NCBI GenBank assembly: GCA_038078775.1
Contig: JBBTSN010000053.1
Location: 1 to 24,975, forward strand
Reading direction: 5' to 3'
DNA length: 24,975 bases
DNA from: Patescibacteria group bacterium
GTDB taxonomy: Bacteria > Patescibacteriota > Patescibacteriia > UBA9934
Positions 1 through 24,390 of this stretch are shown in pieces. The notes under the pieces were generated by a model. It was given only the letters and a program-made list of their open reading frames with translations, did not search any database and was not told where the DNA came from. Position 1 is the stretch's first letter. Each line of letters opens with the position of its first letter. Made by a program: the position numbers and the translations under genes.

Positions 1-801
1 TATTTCAATGAGTAAAGGACCGTTAGCACTGCGAAGAATATCAACACCTGCAAGATCGAGGACTGTGATTTCAGTTGCCTTGAGTGCAAGCGCAGACTCT
101 GCTGCGGAGAGCTCTACCGGAGTTCCAGATCCGCCAAGGGACGCGTTTGCACGTACATCACCCGCTCGAGCAGTACGCTCCATTGCGGCAACTATTTTGC
201 CATGTAGAACAAGAACACGGAGGTCTCGTCGGTTTGCCTCGGAAATGAATTTTTCAATAATAAGCGGATTGCCATCGCGAACATTAAGATACTCAACCAT
301 TGGCAAAAAAGTCTCTGAATCAGTAGCGTAAAAAACGCCTTTTCCGTGGGTTCCAAAAGGAACTTTCATGATGACCGGAAAACCAAGACGATTTGCGGCT
401 TCAAGCGCATGTGCGGGAGCGCGAACAATTGCCCAAGGGGGCATGGGGAGACCTGCGGATTTAAAGCGAAGATGCTGGGTGAGTTTATCTTTAGAGACGA
501 TTAAGGCTTCGGGACTGCCATTCAAAACAGGAATACTCATTTGTTTGAGTGCCTCAAGAGTGGTTGCGTGAGGCATGGGCTCTTCAACAAAATTTGGACG
601 AGCAATCATGACGTTTGGCGCAAAAAAGGGCTTGCCGTCATAATAGGCTTGGAGCCCTTTTTCCGTATGCTCAAACGCAAAAAGCGTTTCGTAAAAAACG
701 CTCATAGTGTGGCCAAGTGCCTGTCCAGCCTCGACCAATCGAACAAAGCCACTTGCCTTATCAAGCAAAGGATCTGAAAAGATGAGAATGCCGATATTCA
801 T
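1..801 (-). CDS. RimK/LysX-family ATP-grasp amino acid ligase (3' end runs off the window)
   Basis: Not in the ORF track. My translation from ATG at 801 is open to base 1: MNIGILIFSD...SKDKLTQHLRF...LGFPVIMKVPFGTHGKGVFY...LIIEKFI...DLRVLV...RANASLGG...LAGVDILRSANGPLLIEI, which contains the ATP-grasp/RimK motifs. Confidence 0.9.
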   Translation of the reverse strand, partial: MNIGILIFSDPLLDKASGFVRLVEAGQALGHTMSVFYETLFAFEHTEKGLQAYYDGKPFFAPNVMIARPNFVEEPMPHATTLEALKQMSIPVLNGSPEALIVSKDKLTQHLRFKSAGLPMPPWAIVRAPAHALEAANRLGFPVIMKVPFGTHGKGVFYATDSETFLPMVEYLNVRDGNPLIIEKFISEANRRDLRVLVLHGKIVAAMERTARAGDVRANASLGGSGTPVELSAAESALALKATEITVLDLAGVDILRSANGPLLIEI

Positions 802-16178: not shown

Positions 16179-17051
16179 ATGGCAAGAGTAAAATCGTATT
16201 TTAAGGAGATTGAGTTACTACGAAAGCGTTATTACGCTGCGCTTTCTGGCAAAGAATCGCTTATGAAATTGGTAAGCGAGGCAGAGATTTCCGAGCATGT
16301 ATACAACTCAAACGCCATAGAGAACAGCACGTTGACACTCGAGGAAACAGAGAAAATTTTGCTGCATCTCGATCTTGATCGATATATTAGCGAACGAGAG
16401 CTTTTTGAGGCGAAGAATCTTGCTCGGGTTATGGGCTACATGGAAACACGTGCACAGGGAAAAGTCTTGGATAAGGAGGCCATGCTTCTTTTGCATAAAA
16501 TGCTCATTACGAACATTCGTGACGATATTGCCGGACGATTCCGTTCTCAGGATGAGTGGGTACGCGTAGGGAGTTATATCGCTCCAGGTCCGTTAGAAAT
16601 TGACGGACTTTTAAATGCTCTCCTTACTACATACGCAGCAAGCAGCGATATGCATATCGTGAAACGCATCGCGAATTTTCATCTTACGTTTGAACGCATT
16701 CACCCCTTCGTTGATGGGAATGGTCGCATGGGAAGAGTAATAAATAATTACCTTTTGATACGTGAAGGCTTTGTTCCGATAACCATTCTTTATTCCGTGC
16801 GAGAAACCTATTATCAAGCTTTCAAAGAATTCGAACAACATGGATCAACGACAGTTATGGAAGATATTATTGGCCTTGCATTGAGAGAAAGCTACCACAA
16901 ACGACTTACGTATCTTGAAGGAAAACGCATCATCACGCTGAATGAATACGGAAAGATAAGTGGAATATCGCTATCGGCGCTCCTGAATAAGGCAACACGG
17001 CAAACTATCGAAGCTTTTCGTGAAAAAGGTGTTTGGAAGATTGGGGTATAG
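16179..17051 (+). CDS. Fic family protein (class II, N-terminal inhibitory helix)
   Basis: HPFVDGNGRMGR catalytic motif and SNAIEN inhibitory motif. Confidence 0.93.
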   Translation: MARVKSYFKEIELLRKRYYAALSGKESLMKLVSEAEISEHVYNSNAIENSTLTLEETEKILLHLDLDRYISERELFEAKNLARVMGYMETRAQGKVLDKEAMLLLHKMLITNIRDDIAGRFRSQDEWVRVGSYIAPGPLEIDGLLNALLTTYAASSDMHIVKRIANFHLTFERIHPFVDGNGRMGRVINNYLLIREGFVPITILYSVRETYYQAFKEFEQHGSTTVMEDIIGLALRESYHKRLTYLEGKRIITLNEYGKISGISLSALLNKATRQTIEAFREKGVWKIGV

Positions 17052-17906: not shown

Positions 17907-18377
17907 CTACTCTCCAATAACCACCGGAACTCTCAGCGAATCTTCATTTTCAGGAAGCCCAGAAGGATTGTCTTTTTGCAGAACAAGTGTTCCCGCATCG
18001 CCGACGATTTGAGCGTCTGCAGTAAACGTAATCGTTGCAGTGAAAGGAACGTAATCGCTCGTCATCCAGTCGCTCTGTGCTTGTGCAATGCCTTGTCCGA
18101 GCATGTTTCCATGCGCATCAAGAAGATAGATAGGGAAGCTTGCTTCAAAAAACCACGAACCGCGCGCTTCTCCACTCACAATAAAGGGACTATTCACCGT
18201 TGCGTGAAGAAGGGGCGTATCAAGAACAACGTCGTCCGTTTCTGCTGAGGTGAGGTAGGTAAAACGAGGTTGAACTTCTTGCGGATTAGTAGGGGTCGGT
18301 GCGTAAAGTGATGCGGCATACAATCCACCTGCAAGAACAATGAGAACGCCGAACACGATCAAAAAGCTTTTCCCCAT
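17907..18377 (-). CDS. Gmad2 immunoglobulin-like domain protein, membrane anchored
   Basis: N-terminal TM, then SPFIVSGEARGSWFFEASFPI...AQSDWMT...KDNPSGLP. Confidence 0.82.
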   Translation of the reverse strand: MGKSFLIVFGVLIVLAGGLYAASLYAPTPTNPQEVQPRFTYLTSAETDDVVLDTPLLHATVNSPFIVSGEARGSWFFEASFPIYLLDAHGNMLGQGIAQAQSDWMTSDYVPFTATITFTADAQIVGDAGTLVLQKDNPSGLPENEDSLRVPVVIGE

Positions 18378-18417: not shown

Positions 18418-18489
18418 GGCTACTTTACTGAACTGGGGAGTATTTATGTTGAGGTGAAGATCGGTATGGATAAGATGCAAGCGAATTGT
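18418..18489 (+). repeat. Cassette left-end repeat, copy 1 (degenerate, core lost)
   Basis: TTTACTGAACTGGGGAGTATTTATGTTGAGGTGAAGATCGGTATGGATAAGATGCAA aligns with copies 2-4. Confidence 0.85.
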
Positions 18490-18544
18490 CAGCTTATTGG
18501 ATCACCATCATCGCAACACGAGTTACGTCAGTATGAGGCGCGCT

Positions 18545-19477
18545 TTACATGTAGCCTCCTTGAGGTTCGGGGAGTGCCTTGTACGCATCCTTCGATTCAA
18601 TAATCGATCGGATGTAGGTCTCCAAGGATTCTAAGTCTTGATTAACTCCGTCTTCGCATCCGTCCCACGCGATATGTTGTTGTACGGCAAAGGTTTGCGT
18701 AAGGAGATCGTAGTCCGCACATGTACTCATAGTCACTTTCGTCAAACTGTCCTCTGTTGGTCTAAACAAGTTCAACTCTTCGATTTTTTCACGAATACCA
18801 TTCAATTCCTCATCCGTCAGCTTTAGAGAGATTATGATGGGCGCATCAACGATCATATCTTTTGTAAACGTATCATGAAATGTATCCAGCTCGTTCTTCG
18901 CTCCCACTCCATATTTGAACGAGAAATCAAAAGATGGCGATTGGTTCGCGTCTTTCTCTACGAATTGCAACGTACGGAAAATCCTTAAGGCGACATCCTG
19001 TTGAAAAGTAGTAAGATTCTCGCCTGATATTTGAAGGCGATCCATTTTATTGCTTCCTAAATCCTCGAAATACACTCCCGTTGTTCCGCTGCCTCCAACG
19101 ACCGGAACTACGAGCTTTGCGCTATGACCGCCGATGATTTCATAAGTGATCACATAGTCGGTGTCACCATCTTCCGCAAGCGAATTGGAATACCAACCGT
19201 AATCAAAACCGAGCGTCACTTCGTCACCAACAAATTCACCAACATACGAATCTATGCCTGGTAATGCGTTGAATTCCCAGCCTGGTGGTAAAGAAAGCGT
19301 AAAAGAATTTGTGTCTACAAATTGCCAATTCTCCGTAGCTTCACTGGTAATCGCGGGTGCGACTGAGCGATTATTCATGATGACGTATCCGATCGCTCCG
19401 ATGACGGCGACGAGGACAATCGCCATTGCTACTCTGACAAGACTTTTTTTATGCATATTTTGTAGCCACGTTTTCAA
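18545..19477 (-). CDS. Hypothetical membrane-anchored/secreted protein
   Basis: 310-aa ORF with an N-terminal TM helix and two acidic extracellular-type domains. Confidence 0.82.
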   Translation of the reverse strand: MKTWLQNMHKKSLVRVAMAIVLVAVIGAIGYVIMNNRSVAPAITSEATENWQFVDTNSFTLSLPPGWEFNALPGIDSYVGEFVGDEVTLGFDYGWYSNSLAEDGDTDYVITYEIIGGHSAKLVVPVVGGSGTTGVYFEDLGSNKMDRLQISGENLTTFQQDVALRIFRTLQFVEKDANQSPSFDFSFKYGVGAKNELDTFHDTFTKDMIVDAPIIISLKLTDEELNGIREKIEELNLFRPTEDSLTKVTMSTCADYDLLTQTFAVQQHIAWDGCEDGVNQDLESLETYIRSIIESKDAYKALPEPQGGYM

Positions 19478-19686
19478 GATTGAGGCTCGATGGCTAATGT
19501 AGAATGTACCTTAATTCGCCTGATAAATCCACCGAGAACTGTGGTCGGGGTTCGAGCCGAAAAAATAAGGTAAATTTGGCATTTCGGGCATTTAAGAAAA
19601 ATTCGTCTGTTTTGCGTCCCGGGCGCTTCGGTTTTCAATGACGACTTTTTGACAAGGCATGTGGGGTCACCTCACGCGCCTTCTCA

Positions 19687-19771
19687 TGGTTCCCTAGGTT
19701 ACCCTTTTACCGAACTGGGGAGTATTTACGCTGGAGTGAAGGTCAGCATGGAGAAGATGCAGTCAAACTGC
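19687..19771 (+). repeat. Core (TGGTTCC) plus cassette left-end repeat, copy 2
   Basis: TGGTTCCCTAGGTTACCCTTTTACCGAACTGGGGAGTATTTACGCTGGAGTGAAGGTCAGCATGGAGAAGATGCAG. Confidence 0.9.
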
Positions 19772-19881
19772 CATTTTTTCAAAGAGAATCAATAATTTGT
19801 GTCGCAACCTGTTCTGAGGTGAGAAGATTTGTAGTATTCGTTCGGTGATTATTTAATTTCAATTTCTTTTTCTGTTAAATC

Positions 19882-20946
19882 CTACAACTTTACATACCGC
19901 GTTCCTGGACCGCGGCCAATCCGTTTTACTTTTCCAAGCTCAATCAACCGATCTAGTCCTTGGCGGACGGTCGGCATGAGAATATCGGTCGCTTTTACAA
20001 CTTCGCTCGGGCTTGCTTCACCAACATTGGAGATAAATTTCCAGACTTCGTACTGTTTAGGCGAGAGCGTATCCTCGAATTTTTCTTCTTGCAGATAAAT
20101 GAGTGCCTTTGTCACTTGTTCTTTTACAACCGCAAGGAAGAAGTTAAGCCACGGCGAGATTGTATCCTTTTCGGTACGGAAAGTTTCCTGTGATTTACGC
20201 AGTGCGATGTAGTACTCGTCCTTTCGCTTCTCGACAAGTTGCTCATGCGAGACGTATTGTACGAATTGATATCCAGATCGAAGCAAGAGAAGATTTGTCA
20301 GGACACGCGAAAGACGCCCGTTGCCATCTTCAAACGGGTGAATCCTCAAGAACTCAACGATAAAGTTTGCGATGATGAGCAGCGGATGAAACCGATTATT
20401 GTCGAAGGCATCAGCCGTCCATTCCACAAGCTCCTGCATTTCTTTTGGTGTCAGGTAGGCAGGAGTCGTCTCGAACATGATGCGCACAGCTTTGCCATCC
20501 GGACCAAGCACACCGACGGTATTTTCTTTTTTCTTGTATGCTCCGCGCTGCTGTTCATCTTTTGTTGAGTATTTGAGGAGCTCCTTGTGGAGCGACTGAA
20601 TCGTGCCATCTCGAAGCGGTAGCGTTTGGAAGCTATCAAAAACATTTTGCAGCGTCTCAAGGTATCCCTGCACTTCTTGCGAATCTCGATCGGCAAACTT
20701 TGAAACGGCAAGACCTTGCATGATTTTCTGCACTTCCTCGTCGGTAAGTTTCGCGCCTTCAATACGTGTAGATGCACCAGCCGAAGTCACGAGCGTTGAT
20801 CGTTTGAGATTGGTAATTGCCTGCGGTGTCATTCGAAGACCAGATTTAAACTCCCCACGAATACCGTCAATTTCAGCTAAAAGAGCCACGATGTGTGGTT
20901 CGGGCGTTTTTACTCGATGGTCGAACTTTAAGGTGTTTTGGTCCAT
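19882..20946 (-). CDS. Fic family protein with C-terminal winged-HTH
   Basis: STRIEG inhibitory motif, HPFEDGNGRLSR catalytic motif, and a C-terminal wHTH ending IGRGPGTRY. Confidence 0.93.
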   Translation of the reverse strand: MDQNTLKFDHRVKTPEPHIVALLAEIDGIRGEFKSGLRMTPQAITNLKRSTLVTSAGASTRIEGAKLTDEEVQKIMQGLAVSKFADRDSQEVQGYLETLQNVFDSFQTLPLRDGTIQSLHKELLKYSTKDEQQRGAYKKKENTVGVLGPDGKAVRIMFETTPAYLTPKEMQELVEWTADAFDNNRFHPLLIIANFIVEFLRIHPFEDGNGRLSRVLTNLLLLRSGYQFVQYVSHEQLVEKRKDEYYIALRKSQETFRTEKDTISPWLNFFLAVVKEQVTKALIYLQEEKFEDTLSPKQYEVWKFISNVGEASPSEVVKATDILMPTVRQGLDRLIELGKVKRIGRGPGTRYVKL

Positions 20947-20953
20947 AAATGTT

Positions 20954-20987
20954 ACTGATATTTACAATGTATCAGATTATATCAGTT
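20954..20987 (-). promoter_or_regulatory. Extended -10 promoter overlapped by CTGATA/TATCAG inverted repeats upstream of fic
   Basis: TG-A-TATAAT on - (20976-20984). Inverted repeat ACTGATAT (20954-61)/ATATCAGT (20979-86), plus an extra TATCAG at 20970-75. Confidence 0.55.
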
Positions 20988-21049
20988 GATAGCAGATAGA
21001 GCAATATGGGCAGCTGTCTTTGCCTTGAATATGACTCATTTAAAACAAA

Positions 21050-21150
21050 GAAAAAACGACCAGTTTTCACCAGTCATTTCTTCGTGGCTCCGCGTCGTAG
21101 ATGATGTTAGAACCGCAATCGAGCAACGCCAGGGATTTATTACCATCCTT
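21050..21150 (+). repeat. Second-type cassette junction: imperfect hairpin, TGGCTCCG core and recombinase-tail-like sequence
   Basis: TGGCTCCG at 21085-21092 equals the last 8 nt of the tRNA. It reads through as KNDQFSPVISSWLRVVDDVRT. Confidence 0.6.
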
Positions 21151-21172
21151 AATCTTACGTCGCTCACAAGGC

Positions 21173-21790
21173 CTACTCATTGAACCAACGATCATGAATT
21201 TTCTGGAGAGTATCTTTATCTAGTTCGAAACCTGACACATCTGGTAGAACGGCATCGATACTACAGTGTGGGCACATCGCAGTACGCTCTATAGGCATAA
21301 AATCGTCAGGCGTAATCTCTGTCGCGGGATAGACTTTTAAACAATAGTAGCAGCCAACGTTTTTACTTCTCCGAATCGCATCCTCATTATTAGTAGCGTG
21401 TTTAATCGCATCTTCAACTTTTGGCGTGAAACTATTAATACCCTTATCCGCCTGTTTCTGCCTAGCCTCATGAATAAGCATAGCTATCTCATGTGGCTTC
21501 TGACTTCTTACTCGTTCAATGATTGCGTTAGGCGTATTCAAATCGTCCTCAACAACCCCTCCGATATCAACTATTTTTTGTGCCAGGTCACTCTTGGCAA
21601 ATTGCTCTAATAAAAAATCCTTTCCTAATTCGGTAATATCACTTTCACCAATACACATTTCATTAAGAAGGCTTTGGAGCATCTCAGAATTCTCAAAGTC
21701 TTCTTTGAAAAATTCTTTCTTATCAGACTTGTAGTTTCTGTATCCAAGGATTCCCTTCTCAATTGTTATTGTGCTATCGGATGAGTTCAT
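21173..21790 (-). CDS. Hypothetical protein with a C-terminal Cys4 zinc-binding domain
   Basis: GCYYC...TAMCPHCSIDAVL...HDRWF at the C-terminus; acidic N-terminal region of unknown type. Confidence 0.8.
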   Translation of the reverse strand: MNSSDSTITIEKGILGYRNYKSDKKEFFKEDFENSEMLQSLLNEMCIGESDITELGKDFLLEQFAKSDLAQKIVDIGGVVEDDLNTPNAIIERVRSQKPHEIAMLIHEARQKQADKGINSFTPKVEDAIKHATNNEDAIRRSKNVGCYYCLKVYPATEITPDDFMPIERTAMCPHCSIDAVLPDVSGFELDKDTLQKIHDRWFNE

Positions 21791-21820
21791 AATGTAATAC
21801 TAACTATTACCCTTAACGGT

Positions 21821-21970
21821 ACTGTATCAGTTCTAACCCCATCCCGGGTAGTCCCAAAACAATAACAAAACCCCAGCATTTCTACTGAGGCTTCATTGGC
21901 TCCCTAGATTACCTTTTTACCGAATTGGCAAGCATTTACGCTGAGGTCAAGGTGAGTATGGAGCATTTGC
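21821..21970 (+). repeat. Full cassette junction: right-end module, TGGCTCC core and left-end repeat copy 3
   Basis: ACTGTATCAGTTC (21821-33), 63 nt, TGGCTCC (21897), then CTAGATTACCTTTTTACCGAATTGGCAAGCATTTAC…. Confidence 0.88.
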
Positions 21971-21988
21971 AAAATTCATTGAATCCTT

Positions 21989-22813
21989 CTAGACGCATCC
22001 TTCAACCTGAAACTTAGGACGTAACTGTGTCCAATGCTCCCTGAGCTGTTTTTCTATAAAACCAGCTTTAATAAGACGCTGTTCAACGGTATCGATGATA
22101 TCAGTAATAGACCTTTGGATTTCATGTGTCTCGGTCATGTTAAGGAGCAAGTCAATTTGAGTACAAAACTCATTTTCACCGAGATCACGGAGACTAGGGT
22201 ATATATGCTTTTCAAACACAGGATAGCGATCATTTATCATGATGAGCGCATTGGCTAGCAGTTTCACTATCTGTAAACTCAACGAGCGTACATAGAGATT
22301 ATTTTTACGCTCTACAGCTACGACCAGACGATCTTCAAATACAAAAACAGATTCAGCAAAAAGCCATTGGATCTTTTCTTGCAATACCTCACTTGGATAC
22401 CATTTGATCTTTGATTGAATTGTTTTATAGCGATCATGTGGGTCAAGAACGACGAGTGCTGCCGCGTGTTCACGTAAAGCCGAATCGTGATCCCAATCGG
22501 TCAAAGAATTTTCCAATTCGCTAAACGTCATTGGGGAGTGAAGTTGAATCGGAAGTTTTTGTTCCCGTAAGCTCATCTTATACTTTTTAACAACTTCCTT
22601 AATCATAACCCGATCAGATTCGTTCTCGAATAACAGATCACAATCAATGTCACTATATCGATCATAGTGATTCGAGGGTACGGATCCCGTGAGTACGAGG
22701 CTCAACTTATCCTTTAATTCAGGATATTGGCTGAAACAATCTTTTTCAATAAAATCTCTAAAAAGATGTACGATTTCTTCTTGTGAATGTTTATAGAAAT
22801 TTTCCAAGGTCAT
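21989..22813 (-). CDS. Pol-beta superfamily nucleotidyltransferase domain protein (DUF4037-like architecture)
   Basis: LVLTGSV...DRYSDIDCDLL (GS/DxD motif), followed by a helical C-terminal domain. Confidence 0.82.
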   Translation of the reverse strand: MTLENFYKHSQEEIVHLFRDFIEKDCFSQYPELKDKLSLVLTGSVPSNHYDRYSDIDCDLLFENESDRVMIKEVVKKYKMSLREQKLPIQLHSPMTFSELENSLTDWDHDSALREHAAALVVLDPHDRYKTIQSKIKWYPSEVLQEKIQWLFAESVFVFEDRLVVAVERKNNLYVRSLSLQIVKLLANALIMINDRYPVFEKHIYPSLRDLGENEFCTQIDLLLNMTETHEIQRSITDIIDTVEQRLIKAGFIEKQLREHWTQLRPKFQVEGCV

Positions 22814-22822
22814 ATTGAAGCT

Positions 22823-22970
22823 AGTGTATCAGTTCGGTAAGAAATCTGGGAGGTATTCAAAAATATAAAAATCCCTAGCGAATTGCTAGAGATTTTTATG
22901 GCTCCCTAGGTTACCTTTTTACCGAACTGGGGAGTATTTATTCCGAAGTGAAGATCAGCATGGATAAACT
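22823..22970 (+). repeat. Full cassette junction: right-end module, TGGCTCC core and left-end repeat copy 4
   Basis: AGTGTATCAGTTC (22823-35), 63 nt, TGGCTCC (22899). 22863-22905 is an exact 43-bp copy of 23821-23863. Confidence 0.92.
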
Positions 22971-23044
22971 ACGGAGCACGGTGACTCGTTAAGCCCTACC
23001 CTCTACAGAGTATTTCATGGGTTTTTTTGGTATAGTTAAGGAAT

Positions 23045-23368
23045 ATGAAGCAAGCGAGATATAAATTGATTGTACATTCACCCTTAACGCACTCGAAGAT
23101 AATCAGAGATGCACTTGGTGAAATTGGCGCTGGCAAGGTTGGAAACTACGATTTCTGCTCCTTTTCTTATTCTGGCATAGGCCGCTTTCGCGGAAATGAG
23201 AAATCGAAACCTGCTATTGGAGTACCTGGACGGATAGAGGAAGTCGAGGAGGAATCTATAGAGGTAGTGATAGTGGAAGACGTTTTGCGATTAGCCATTC
23301 AAAAACTAAAAGAGGTTCATCCCTATGAAGAGCCTGCTTACGAAGTCTATAAGTTGGAAGATTTCTAA
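23045..23368 (+). CDS. YqfO/NIF3-insert (PII/CutA-like) domain protein
   Basis: GAGKVGNYDFCSF...GIGRF...PAIG...VHPYEEPAYEVY. Confidence 0.9.
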   Translation: MKQARYKLIVHSPLTHSKIIRDALGEIGAGKVGNYDFCSFSYSGIGRFRGNEKSKPAIGVPGRIEEVEEESIEVVIVEDVLRLAIQKLKEVHPYEEPAYEVYKLEDF

Positions 23369-23377
23369 AGCAACAAA

Positions 23378-23770
23378 TTAACGGTTTTTATCAAGGTAAT
23401 CTTTTACCCCCTCAAACAGCGTGGGCATGTAAGTCTGAAGTTTGTCGACATCGATCCAAGTGAAGGATTCGGCATCAATATCTTTGGGAATACTTAGCGT
23501 TTGTTCAGAGTTTTTCTCGCAATGAAAGTAGTAAGTATGGTTCTTGGTGGAAGGATGAATTCTTTCACCAATCTTTCTCATTACTTTTATATCCAAATTT
23601 GTTTGTCTTTTAACTTCTTCAATTAACTCTTTTTCGGCATTCTCCTTATCTTGAACGCTTTCGCAGGGAAATGTATACCTGAGCCCATCATAATCACTCA
23701 GTTTCTCAGGTTTTATTTCACCGATCAGGGCTTTGTCGCCGTCCAGGATAATGGCCAATGCAATATTCAT
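23378..23770 (-). CDS. NUDIX-fold protein with a degenerate Nudix box
   Basis: Start reassigned to ATG 23770 (MNIALAIILDGDKALIG). Nudix-box region reads YTFPCESVQDKENAEKELIEEVKRQTNLDI; C-terminal FTWIDVDKL. Confidence 0.72.
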   Translation of the reverse strand: MNIALAIILDGDKALIGEIKPEKLSDYDGLRYTFPCESVQDKENAEKELIEEVKRQTNLDIKVMRKIGERIHPSTKNHTYYFHCEKNSEQTLSIPKDIDAESFTWIDVDKLQTYMPTLFEGVKDYLDKNR

Positions 23771-23780
23771 AGTTAGTAAA

Positions 23781-23863
23781 ACTATATCAGTTCGACACCC
23801 ATTTGGGGTAATCCAAAAATATATAAAAATCCCTAGCGAATTGCTAGAGATTTTTATGGCTCC
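23781..23863. repeat. Cassette right-end module abutting the tRNA 3' end (includes a terminator-like hairpin)
   Basis: ACTATATCAGTTC (23781-93), 63 nt, TGGCTCC (23857). Hairpin AAAAATCCCTAGC-GAATT-GCTAGAGATTTTT. Confidence 0.9.
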
Positions 23864-23897
23864 GGGGGAGGGGATCGAACCCTCGACCTGAGGATTA

Positions 23898-24281
23898 CAC
23901 ATTGTCTCTCGGTTTCCCGAAAGGGTGGACTATATCACCATCCTTGATATGAAGTGAGTAATCTCTACTACATATCTTTCGGATGCGAGGCGCTTCCGGC
24001 GACGTTACCGTCGGCGTACTCCCTTGCGGGATAGTCTCTGAACCTTCCCAATGACCTCTGTCATTTTGGGCTTGGCTGCTGATTACCATGTCCGCAATGC
24101 GGACGAAGGCTTCCAGACAATTCACCTCGTTTTCATTCCAGAATTTCTCCTGGAAGCTGCGTAATACCCGCGTGAACTTCACGATGACAGCTAGTGCAAG
24201 ACGCACGCTTTATCGTTTCGGCACGTTGGGCATAGGTTCGTTTCTCAACCATATGTTTAAAGTATAGTTGGAAACAGTGCC
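23898..24281 (-). ncRNA. Group I intron (subgroup IA-like), 384 nt, inserted at tRNA position 35/36
   Basis: P AATTGTCTGGAA, Q AATCAGCAGCC, R GTTCAGAGACTA, S GATATAGTCC. P3 GAGGUG/CGCCUC, P7 GACUA/UAGUC, P7.1/P7.2 hairpins, GAAA-capped P9, and terminal G. Confidence 0.93.
24133..24252 (-). pseudogene. Internally deleted HNH homing endonuclease remnant inside the intron
   Basis: 39-aa ORF MVEKRTYAQRAETIKRASCTSCHREVHAGITQLPGEILE*; CxxCHREVH is the terminal Zn/HNH motif. Confidence 0.65.
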
Positions 24282-24339
24282 ACAGTCCTTCGCTCTGCCG
24301 CTGAGCTACCCCGGAACATATTTCCTGATTTCTTCTTCT

Positions 24340-24364
24340 TGCCTCCGCGGGTGGGAATCGAACC
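24340..24364 (-). pseudogene. Orphan tRNA 3'-half fragment (Asn-like acceptor)
   Basis: On -: GGTTCGATTCCCACCCGCGGAGGCA (T-loop, 3' T-stem, acceptor CCGCGGA, G73, GCA). No matching 5' half upstream. Confidence 0.6.
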
Positions 24365-24390
24365 GTAATAGCAAAAAAGAAACCGTACAG

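Follow-up and report, generated by a model that had tools for sequence, protein, structure and literature searches.

The 24,975-nt contig JBBTSN010000053.1 of a Patescibacteria group bacterium, which was analysed over its entire length and is called the window here, carries four copies of a repeat of about 75 nt, all of them to the left of a tRNA-Asn gene that is split by an intron. Our findings indicate, with a probability that we place at about 0.88 and on the basis of sequence comparisons, that this repeat is the 3' end, or tail, of a large serine recombinase (LSR) gene that is split by its own insertion site at tRNA-Asn. In relatives of the window, the same motif forms the C-terminus of LSRs of 560-600 residues with Resolvase, Recombinase and Zn-ribbon domains. 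The tail copies are preceded by a core of seven nucleotides, TGGCTCC, that corresponds to the tRNA 3' end GGAGCCA in reverse complement. The assembly of the window (954 kb in 179 contigs, coded G000) contains no tail repeat in its remaining sequence, and its relatives bear the names Candidatus Uhrbacteria or Patescibacteria. What is new here is the stack of recombinase-less units, together with selection on orphan tails in three orthologous cassette pairs.

The parent recombinase gene

A profile built from 17 tails and searched against 1.84 billion proteins gave 46 matches, mostly short open reading frames (ORFs) with the motif at the C-terminus. Four examined sequences extend upstream into a shared segment, '..EKREI.TQVFTEL..KKL.NY.AKEGF..L..RH', and a six-frame search of 400 genomes of the phylum located this segment near the end of ORFs of 500-597 residues in many genomes of the Candidate Phyla Radiation (CPR). 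For the longer motif-bearing ORFs, such as P0005, P0014, P0015 and others, Pfam returned no match, and their upstream parts are unrelated read-through.

Both states of the parent gene are represented among the relatives. Intact genes that end in the tail itself are P0067 (580 residues), P0060 and P0062; for instance, at the P0067 locus (L073), TGGCTCC lies inside an intact ORF on a 7.2-kb contig without a tRNA. The split state is seen in G179, where a 589-residue ORF with Resolvase, Recombinase and Zn-ribbon domains reads '...RHDTIS-GS', crosses TGGCTCC and continues in antisense tRNA-Asn; its tail stands detached, 7.4 kb further left. Similarly, in G008 and G006, two genomes of the window's genus, recombinases of 563-567 residues read into tRNA-Asn, and a hairpin, core and tail with intact junctions stand 8-9 kb to the left; G006 has an additional, older recombinase-less unit further out, with its own tail. 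Among homologues of the G008 enzyme, 14 of 24 end in antisense tRNA-Asn residues (GSGGG.RT..), and the codon phase of GGC TCC is identical in recombinase bodies and orphan tails. The first-pass annotation of the window had proposed that the repeats are orphaned C-termini of serine or tyrosine recombinases spanning their attachment site (attP) next to tRNA-Asn. The intact and split genes bear out the orphaned C-termini and the spanned attP, and the domain content retains the serine half of the proposal and removes the tyrosine half. A tyrosine integrase of the SSV or lambda type was also considered for the array itself and rejected: the PF00589 matches of five genomes, mostly a single Xer-like gene, are found only on other contigs or far away.

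The sequence of events suggested by these genes would be as follows. The core lies inside the recombinase ORF, 30-60 codons ahead of the stop, so that the free element encodes a complete enzyme ending in GS-x-D-Y-L-F-T-E-L-x-x-I-Y-x-x-V-K-x-S-M-E-K... This enzyme is predicted to catalyse recombination of the element site with the 3' end of tRNA-Asn, and integration at the CCA end would cut the recombinase gene. In the integrated state, its body stands beside the tRNA and ends in about 20-30 residues from antisense tRNA, and the true tail lies at the far left end, in an attL-type junction that consists of hairpin, core and tail. The window holds four such left ends and one of another class, stacked outward from tRNA-Asn; because all recombinase bodies are gone, only small cargo units remain. 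An element residing at the tRNA might also excise with a distal tail, taking the intervening units along; this would call for recombination outside the canonical attP x attB rules.

Links of the enzyme to characterized recombinases (TP901-1, XisF, CcrB) are weak. A search of PDB sequences with P0067 gave no match, and a profile reached the catalytic domain of TP901-1 only. The AlphaFold2 model of P0067 (mean predicted local distance difference test score, pLDDT, 77.5) shows the catalytic, recombinase and zinc-ribbon/coiled-coil parts as expected. No relatives were found in IMG/VR viral contigs, which therefore offer no evidence for a phage form. The family itself appears to be widespread in ultra-small CPR bacteria.

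Two further observations concern the design of these genes. In G008 (locus L015, 9228-9252), the recombinase's in-frame linker immediately ahead of the core doubles, read from the opposite strand, as a terminator: a hairpin of 11 pairs plus a T-run, which directly follows the tRNA-Asn 3' end. The integrase gene of the element thus seems to contain a new terminator for the tRNA. In the window's own genome, two LSR ORFs on contigs C46 and C94 read into antisense tRNA-Ala(GGC) and tRNA-Trp(CCA), and the design with attP inside the gene therefore serves several tRNAs in one organism.

Coding signature, array history and rival explanations

The four window copies lie where the first-pass annotation had placed them and encode the peptides that it quoted. 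None has a start codon, and the in-frame stretch upstream, 3-38 codons long, is not conserved. Compared with one another, the four copies show a proportion of synonymous differences (pS) of 0.67 against a proportion of nonsynonymous differences (pN) of 0.19. A nucleotide search over 61 related genomes, which is blind to reading frame, found 10 repeat copies in 7 genomes. Nine of these retain the core, and in each of the nine the frame starting at GGC TCC stays open for 30-40 codons. Profile searching across the order recovered the repeat from 19 of 162 genomes, and no open frame that contained it exceeded 98 residues. The frame test set comprised 18 copies of 26 codons, picked from 15 genomes with a peptide pattern. 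In this set, the + frame has no stops, a count that is partly selected because the copies were chosen by that pattern, and a ratio of nonsynonymous to synonymous rates (dN/dS) of 0.29; the other five frames of the same copies have 17-39 stops and dN/dS values of 0.61-1.33, and the caveat touches neither this contrast on the same sequences nor the DNA-level set. Minus-strand and shifted frames were rejected as coding, being full of stops.

This signature is also found where the recombinase is missing. Between the window and G088, the tail pair of one shared cassette differs by 12 synonymous changes and 1 nonsynonymous change (26 and 91 sites, respectively), compared with 46 synonymous and 37 nonsynonymous changes in the neighbouring nucleotidyltransferase gene; under neutrality, a 12:1 skew has a probability of about 1e-7 (a binomial estimate from the counts). 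Two more cassette pairs share homologous cargo and have no recombinase in the surrounding DNA that was retrieved; their synonymous to nonsynonymous ratios are 10.5:7.5 (p = 1.6e-3) and 11.5:6.5 (p = 7.6e-5). Orphan tails seem, therefore, to remain under protein-level purifying selection without a resident recombinase. This amends the earlier annotation, as the coding signal would not only be inherited from parent genes but would persist in recombinase-less cassettes. Our best guess is that selection persists since a unit spreads only with a recombinase body joined to a working tail.

Comparison of arrays suggests how such units may have accumulated. Beside the core, relatives display a decay series of the recombinase, from full length (G008, G006, G179) through 128 residues (G016) and two pieces of 87 and 55 residues (G038) to none (G023, G088 and the window). 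This series fits successive integrations at tRNA-Asn, each shifting the older elements outward, with the recombinase body lost afterwards. The window unit at 21897-22905, comprising tail 3, the nucleotidyltransferase gene, promoter and hairpin, has a counterpart in G088, a genome of another family, with 1035 nt aligned at 88.5% identity; both cores mark the limits of homology, and the neighbours differ. In G158, the hairpin left of window copy 2 is present with a different tail, and metagenome contigs match the window up to 23863 and then continue with an arm of another sequence class (class B) in place of the tRNA. These breakpoints indicate that exchange probably takes place at the core. A joint in one metagenome run that 'goes back 958' falls inside a 47-nt duplicate, is ambiguous and was not counted as a circle junction. 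In the empty-site comparison, flanking genes within the genus are only about 30% identical and not syntenic.

Several observations weigh against the split-recombinase interpretation. In a tblastn search of the window, 24 LSR queries matched the tails and the tRNA antisense only, and no body or remnant of a recombinase was found; the fragmented G000 assembly yielded no LSR of the tRNA-Asn type, and the five LSRs that it carries on contigs other than the window belong to different types. With no cognate recombinase in array or genome, the window copies are orphans and not parts of live genes. Every copy found of the window tail subgroup (GSLDYLFTELGSIY..) is likewise an orphan: a search of genome contigs with a narrower alignment recovered 7 loci, all orphans, and close relatives in genome and metagenome contigs are all orphans too. 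The tails of intact genes are more distant from those of the window, with about 60-67% identity over 21-22 residues. The left junction of G179 has a decayed core, and the role of the tail in enzyme activity is putative; in the P0067 model, the tail is a helix at residues 543-567 with pLDDT below 50, and because of this low confidence the model is silent on how the tail packs. Lastly, recombination by canonical LSRs is restricted to attP with attB, so that an extra assumption would be needed to explain repeated integration at a single tRNA and units without a recombinase.

The tails may combine two kinds of constraint. Conservation drops past about codon 24. Within the tails, TTT, GAA and the C of the following codon are invariant, even synonymously, and CGAAC occurs at +25..29 from the core start in 18/18 tails, compared with +20..24 in tRNAs, although a 5-nt motif is weak evidence; a matching half-site on the left was not found. 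In the LI integrase, the half-site motif of attP lies 5 bp further out than that of attB (PMC3783163). This pattern is suggestive, without being proof, of a division in which the first 10 or so codons of the tail would serve both as P' half-site and as coding sequence, and codons 11-24 would be constrained as protein only. The latter codons probably form an amphipathic helix.

The half-site signal is also the starting point of a rival explanation, in which conservation is purely at the DNA level: the repeat would be no more than the P' arm of an att site, bound by the recombinase, and its open frame would be incidental. It accounts for the synonymously invariant bases (TTT, GAA and the C of CTN) within the first 29 nt or so from the core start, and for the arms of two other sequence classes, B and C, which have GAAC at the same distance with a weak coding signal. 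However, conservation continues to about +75 nt, past the 25-nt half-site of an LSR, variation is 3-periodic with synonymous switches (AGG/CGG, TTG/CTN, ACC/TCT), the stops of the other frames are missing from this one, and intact recombinases end in the same sequence, translated. We consider this explanation improbable. Each copy might alternatively be an independent gene for a peptide of 30-40 residues with a non-canonical start, a possibility with which the open frame and the purifying selection in recombinase-less cassettes are compatible. Yet no ATG, GTG or TTG stands in frame (the codon preceding GGC is TAT, CAT, ATT, TGT, GCT or TCT), what precedes the core is a terminator hairpin whose sequence is unrelated between copies, and conservation begins exactly at the core, all of which make such peptide genes very improbable.

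The position of the repeat between each minus-strand cargo gene and GGAGCCA plus terminator could instead point to a structured RNA, or to a degenerate tRNA 3' half on the minus strand, in the 3' untranslated region of each cargo gene; GTTCGG even bears a faint likeness to a T-loop. The first-pass annotation had itself named RNA structure as a possible source of the conservation. RNAalifold, however, predicted 0 conserved pairs on the + strand of the 18 copies and, on the - strand, 4 pairs, all invariant and without compensatory change, at -0.8 kcal/mol, and the repeat has no Rfam match, so that neither strand offers a conserved structure and an RNA origin is the most far-fetched of the explanations considered. 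Local tandem duplication within the genome, for its part, could appeal to the 47-nt stretches 22859-22905 and 23817-23863, which are 98% identical, but this duplicate consists of hairpin and core, not of tail. The window tails differ from one another at 13-23 of 63 positions, and local duplication is rejected because the nearest relative of each is a tail in another genome; moreover, the cargo genes are unrelated to each other, and cassette 3 stands among other neighbours in G088. Duplication is accordingly very unlikely, and the earlier view that the copies derive from separately diverged parents stands.

Layout of the array, its target tRNA and its cargo

Four more cores lie to the left of the tRNA, at 22899, 21897, 21085 and 19687; the one at 19687 reads TGGTTCC. 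On the + strand, the cores at 22899, 21897 and 19687 run into the tail repeat; the copy at 18418 no longer has a core. At 22899, 21897, 21085 and the tRNA itself, the core is succeeded on the minus strand by a minus-strand terminator hairpin. The spaces between cores contain one or two small genes each, mainly on the minus strand.

The outermost tail, copy 1 (18418-18603, +), has lost its first codons along with the core, reads ..YFTELGSIYVEVKIGMDKMQANC.. and adjoins a chromosomal Gmad2-like gene at 17907-18377. Copy 2 (19687-19795, +) consists of the core at 19687-19693 and an open frame at 19688-19795 of 35 codons and a stop; the in-frame stretch upstream ends in ..FLTRH and a hairpin-coded linker, with a weak likeness to the end of a recombinase body. 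Copy 3 (21864-22017, +) has its hairpin at 21864-21897, core at 21897-21903 and frame at 21898-22017 (39 codons and a stop), and its junction is the left end of the cassette common to the window and G088. Copy 4 (22865-22992, +) has its hairpin at 22865-22899, core at 22899-22905 and frame at 22900-22992 (30 codons and a stop). Directly past the tRNA 3' end, a terminator hairpin and core at 23823-23863 (-) form an attB-like junction.

A fifth unit boundary, missed by the first-pass annotation, belongs to another sequence class. At 21050-21091 (+), a minus-strand terminator hairpin and the core TGGCTCC (21085-21091) are followed by the class B arm GCGTCGTAGATGATGTTAGAAC, with no tail repeat. 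Class B and class C arms after the same core (GCATCGTGGAGGATGTTAGAAC and GCATACTGGACGGATTCAGAAC) were found in the window at 21085-21183, in the G023 array (L012) and in G088 (L082). They read WLR[IV][VL][DE][DG][VF]RT.. in the frame TGG CTC CGN, and the coding test in this frame (WLRIVDGFRT..) gave a ratio of 0.70 and 3 stops; these arms may be half-sites for the most part, or may be the tails of a different recombinase lineage. The G023 array comprises about 13 units of mixed classes and reaches its tRNA-Asn.

The cargo of unit 1 is a 310-residue protein without family match (18545-19477, -). Unit 2 carries a Fic-domain protein that is SoFic-like (19882-20946, -; PADLOC SoFic model, E 1.8e-43); a second Fic-domain gene is located outside the array, on the chromosomal side, at 16179-17051. 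The class B unit encodes a 205-residue protein without family match (21173-21790, -), unit 3 a nucleotidyltransferase and DUF4037 protein (21989-22813, -), and unit 4 (23045-23770) a 107-residue ORF (23045-23368, +) and a NUDIX protein (23378-23770, -). Upstream of the 310-residue cargo gene and adjoining the hairpin of copy 2, a 134-nt non-coding stretch (19503-19636) is 77-85% identical to stretches at the right ends of cassettes in G070 and G158. It has no Rfam match and could be a shared promoter or right-end module.

The target is a tRNA-Asn(GUU) gene at 23857-24315 (-), with exons at 24315-24282 and 23897-23857 and a group I intron at 23898-24281. The intron, identified as RF00028, is the sole Rfam match over the whole window and sits in the anticodon loop, between anticodon bases 2 and 3; because it splits the gene, ARAGORN misses this tRNA. 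Joining the 34-nt 5' exon, which ends in U, to the 41-nt 3' exon, which follows a G, yields a 75-nt tRNA-Asn(GUU). Both exon halves match uninterrupted tRNA-Asn genes of relatives, which confirms the target named in the first-pass annotation. Intron-less alleles are present in contigs of two groundwater metagenome runs, with an exact 384-nt gap at 23898-24281. Among relatives, the intron is also found in the tRNA-Asn of G006 and G038, and G008, G016, G023 and G025 lack it. The tRNA 3' end appears on the + strand as TGGCTCC at 23857-23863, with the terminator hairpin immediately after it.

Two side observations concern tRNA genes. The stretch 24340-24370 (TGCCTCCGCGGGTGGGAATCGAACC) looks like the 3' part of a further tRNA in antisense (84% to the Asn 3' exon over 25 nt) and gave no tRNA call; it may be a remnant or a second split tRNA. 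In G158 (L084, G158:C10), the innermost tail lies about 140 nt from tRNA-Ile and tRNA-Arg genes, and tRNA-Asn is not beside the array, which has lost, or was separated from, its target tRNA.

Known systems and significance

The enzyme resembles the large serine integrases (A118/LI, phiC31, Bxb1, TP901-1; XisF, CcrB) in its Resolvase, Recombinase and Zn-ribbon domains, its long coiled coil and its short core, and perhaps in a half-site motif that is displaced outward by 5 bp on the element side relative to the host side, the arrangement shown for the LI integrase (PMC3783163). Unlike in those systems, the crossover site is inside the enzyme's own ORF and the target is a tRNA CCA end; integration would swap the last 30-60 residues for tRNA-antisense residues, and recombinase-less stacks keep the tail. 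A search of the literature brought up no paper on serine recombinases with attP inside their own gene. Counterparts are the 'suicidal' tyrosine integrases of the SSV type in archaea, whose att site lies in the gene, which target tRNAs and whose gene is partitioned on integration; a review describes integrases with the att site inside the gene as tyrosine enzymes exclusive to archaea (PMC8371274). The present case, in contrast, involves a bacterial serine recombinase from which only a short C-terminal tail is detached. A bacterial tyrosine precedent is IntP/IntX of myxophage Mx8, where attP lies in the 3' part of int and integration replaces the C-terminus. It differs from the present case in being a tyrosine integrase of a single prophage, and arrays of orphan tails are not known for it.

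The stacking itself recalls the tycheposon islands of Prochlorococcus, in which successive integrations at one tRNA move older elements outward and integrase-less remnants form cargo islands (10.1101/2020.12.28.424599). Tycheposons, however, mostly use tyrosine recombinases, and their boundary repeats are partial tRNAs, whereas the boundary here is the end of an integrase gene. Integron cassette arrays are similar in being a row of mostly single-gene units between recombination sites that grows from one fixed site. In contrast to integrons, each unit here has its own hairpin terminator, there is no IntI, the one Xer-like tyrosine recombinase per genome is encoded elsewhere, and no attC-type folded site is present. 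An integron was accordingly rejected as the identity of the array, which has neither IntI nor a conserved folded attC-type site by RNAalifold.

A tentative reading, which we regard as possible but not the likelier outcome, is that the orphan tails are selected as ready-made attL left ends and spare C-terminal gene pieces, amounting to integron-like gene capture by a serine integrase. If so, excision with any outer tail would remove the intervening cargo, and the integrase would be complete only if that tail codes; this would act as a built-in protein check, and units with a decayed tail would no longer spread.

Genome engineering relies heavily on serine integrases, and what makes these enzymes integrate or excise is under active study. 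In the system described here, the C-terminus would be rewritten by the reaction itself, so that the free and the integrated element would have different tails, possibly providing a self-contained directionality or 'one-way ticket' switch. To our knowledge, such a switch has so far been known only for archaeal tyrosine integrases. The routes of gene exchange in CPR bacteria are poorly known, and recombinase-less stacks beside tRNA genes carry defence-type cargo, such as the SoFic-like protein. Protein-level selection on the detached tails would provide a testable handle on the mobilisation of these units in trans.

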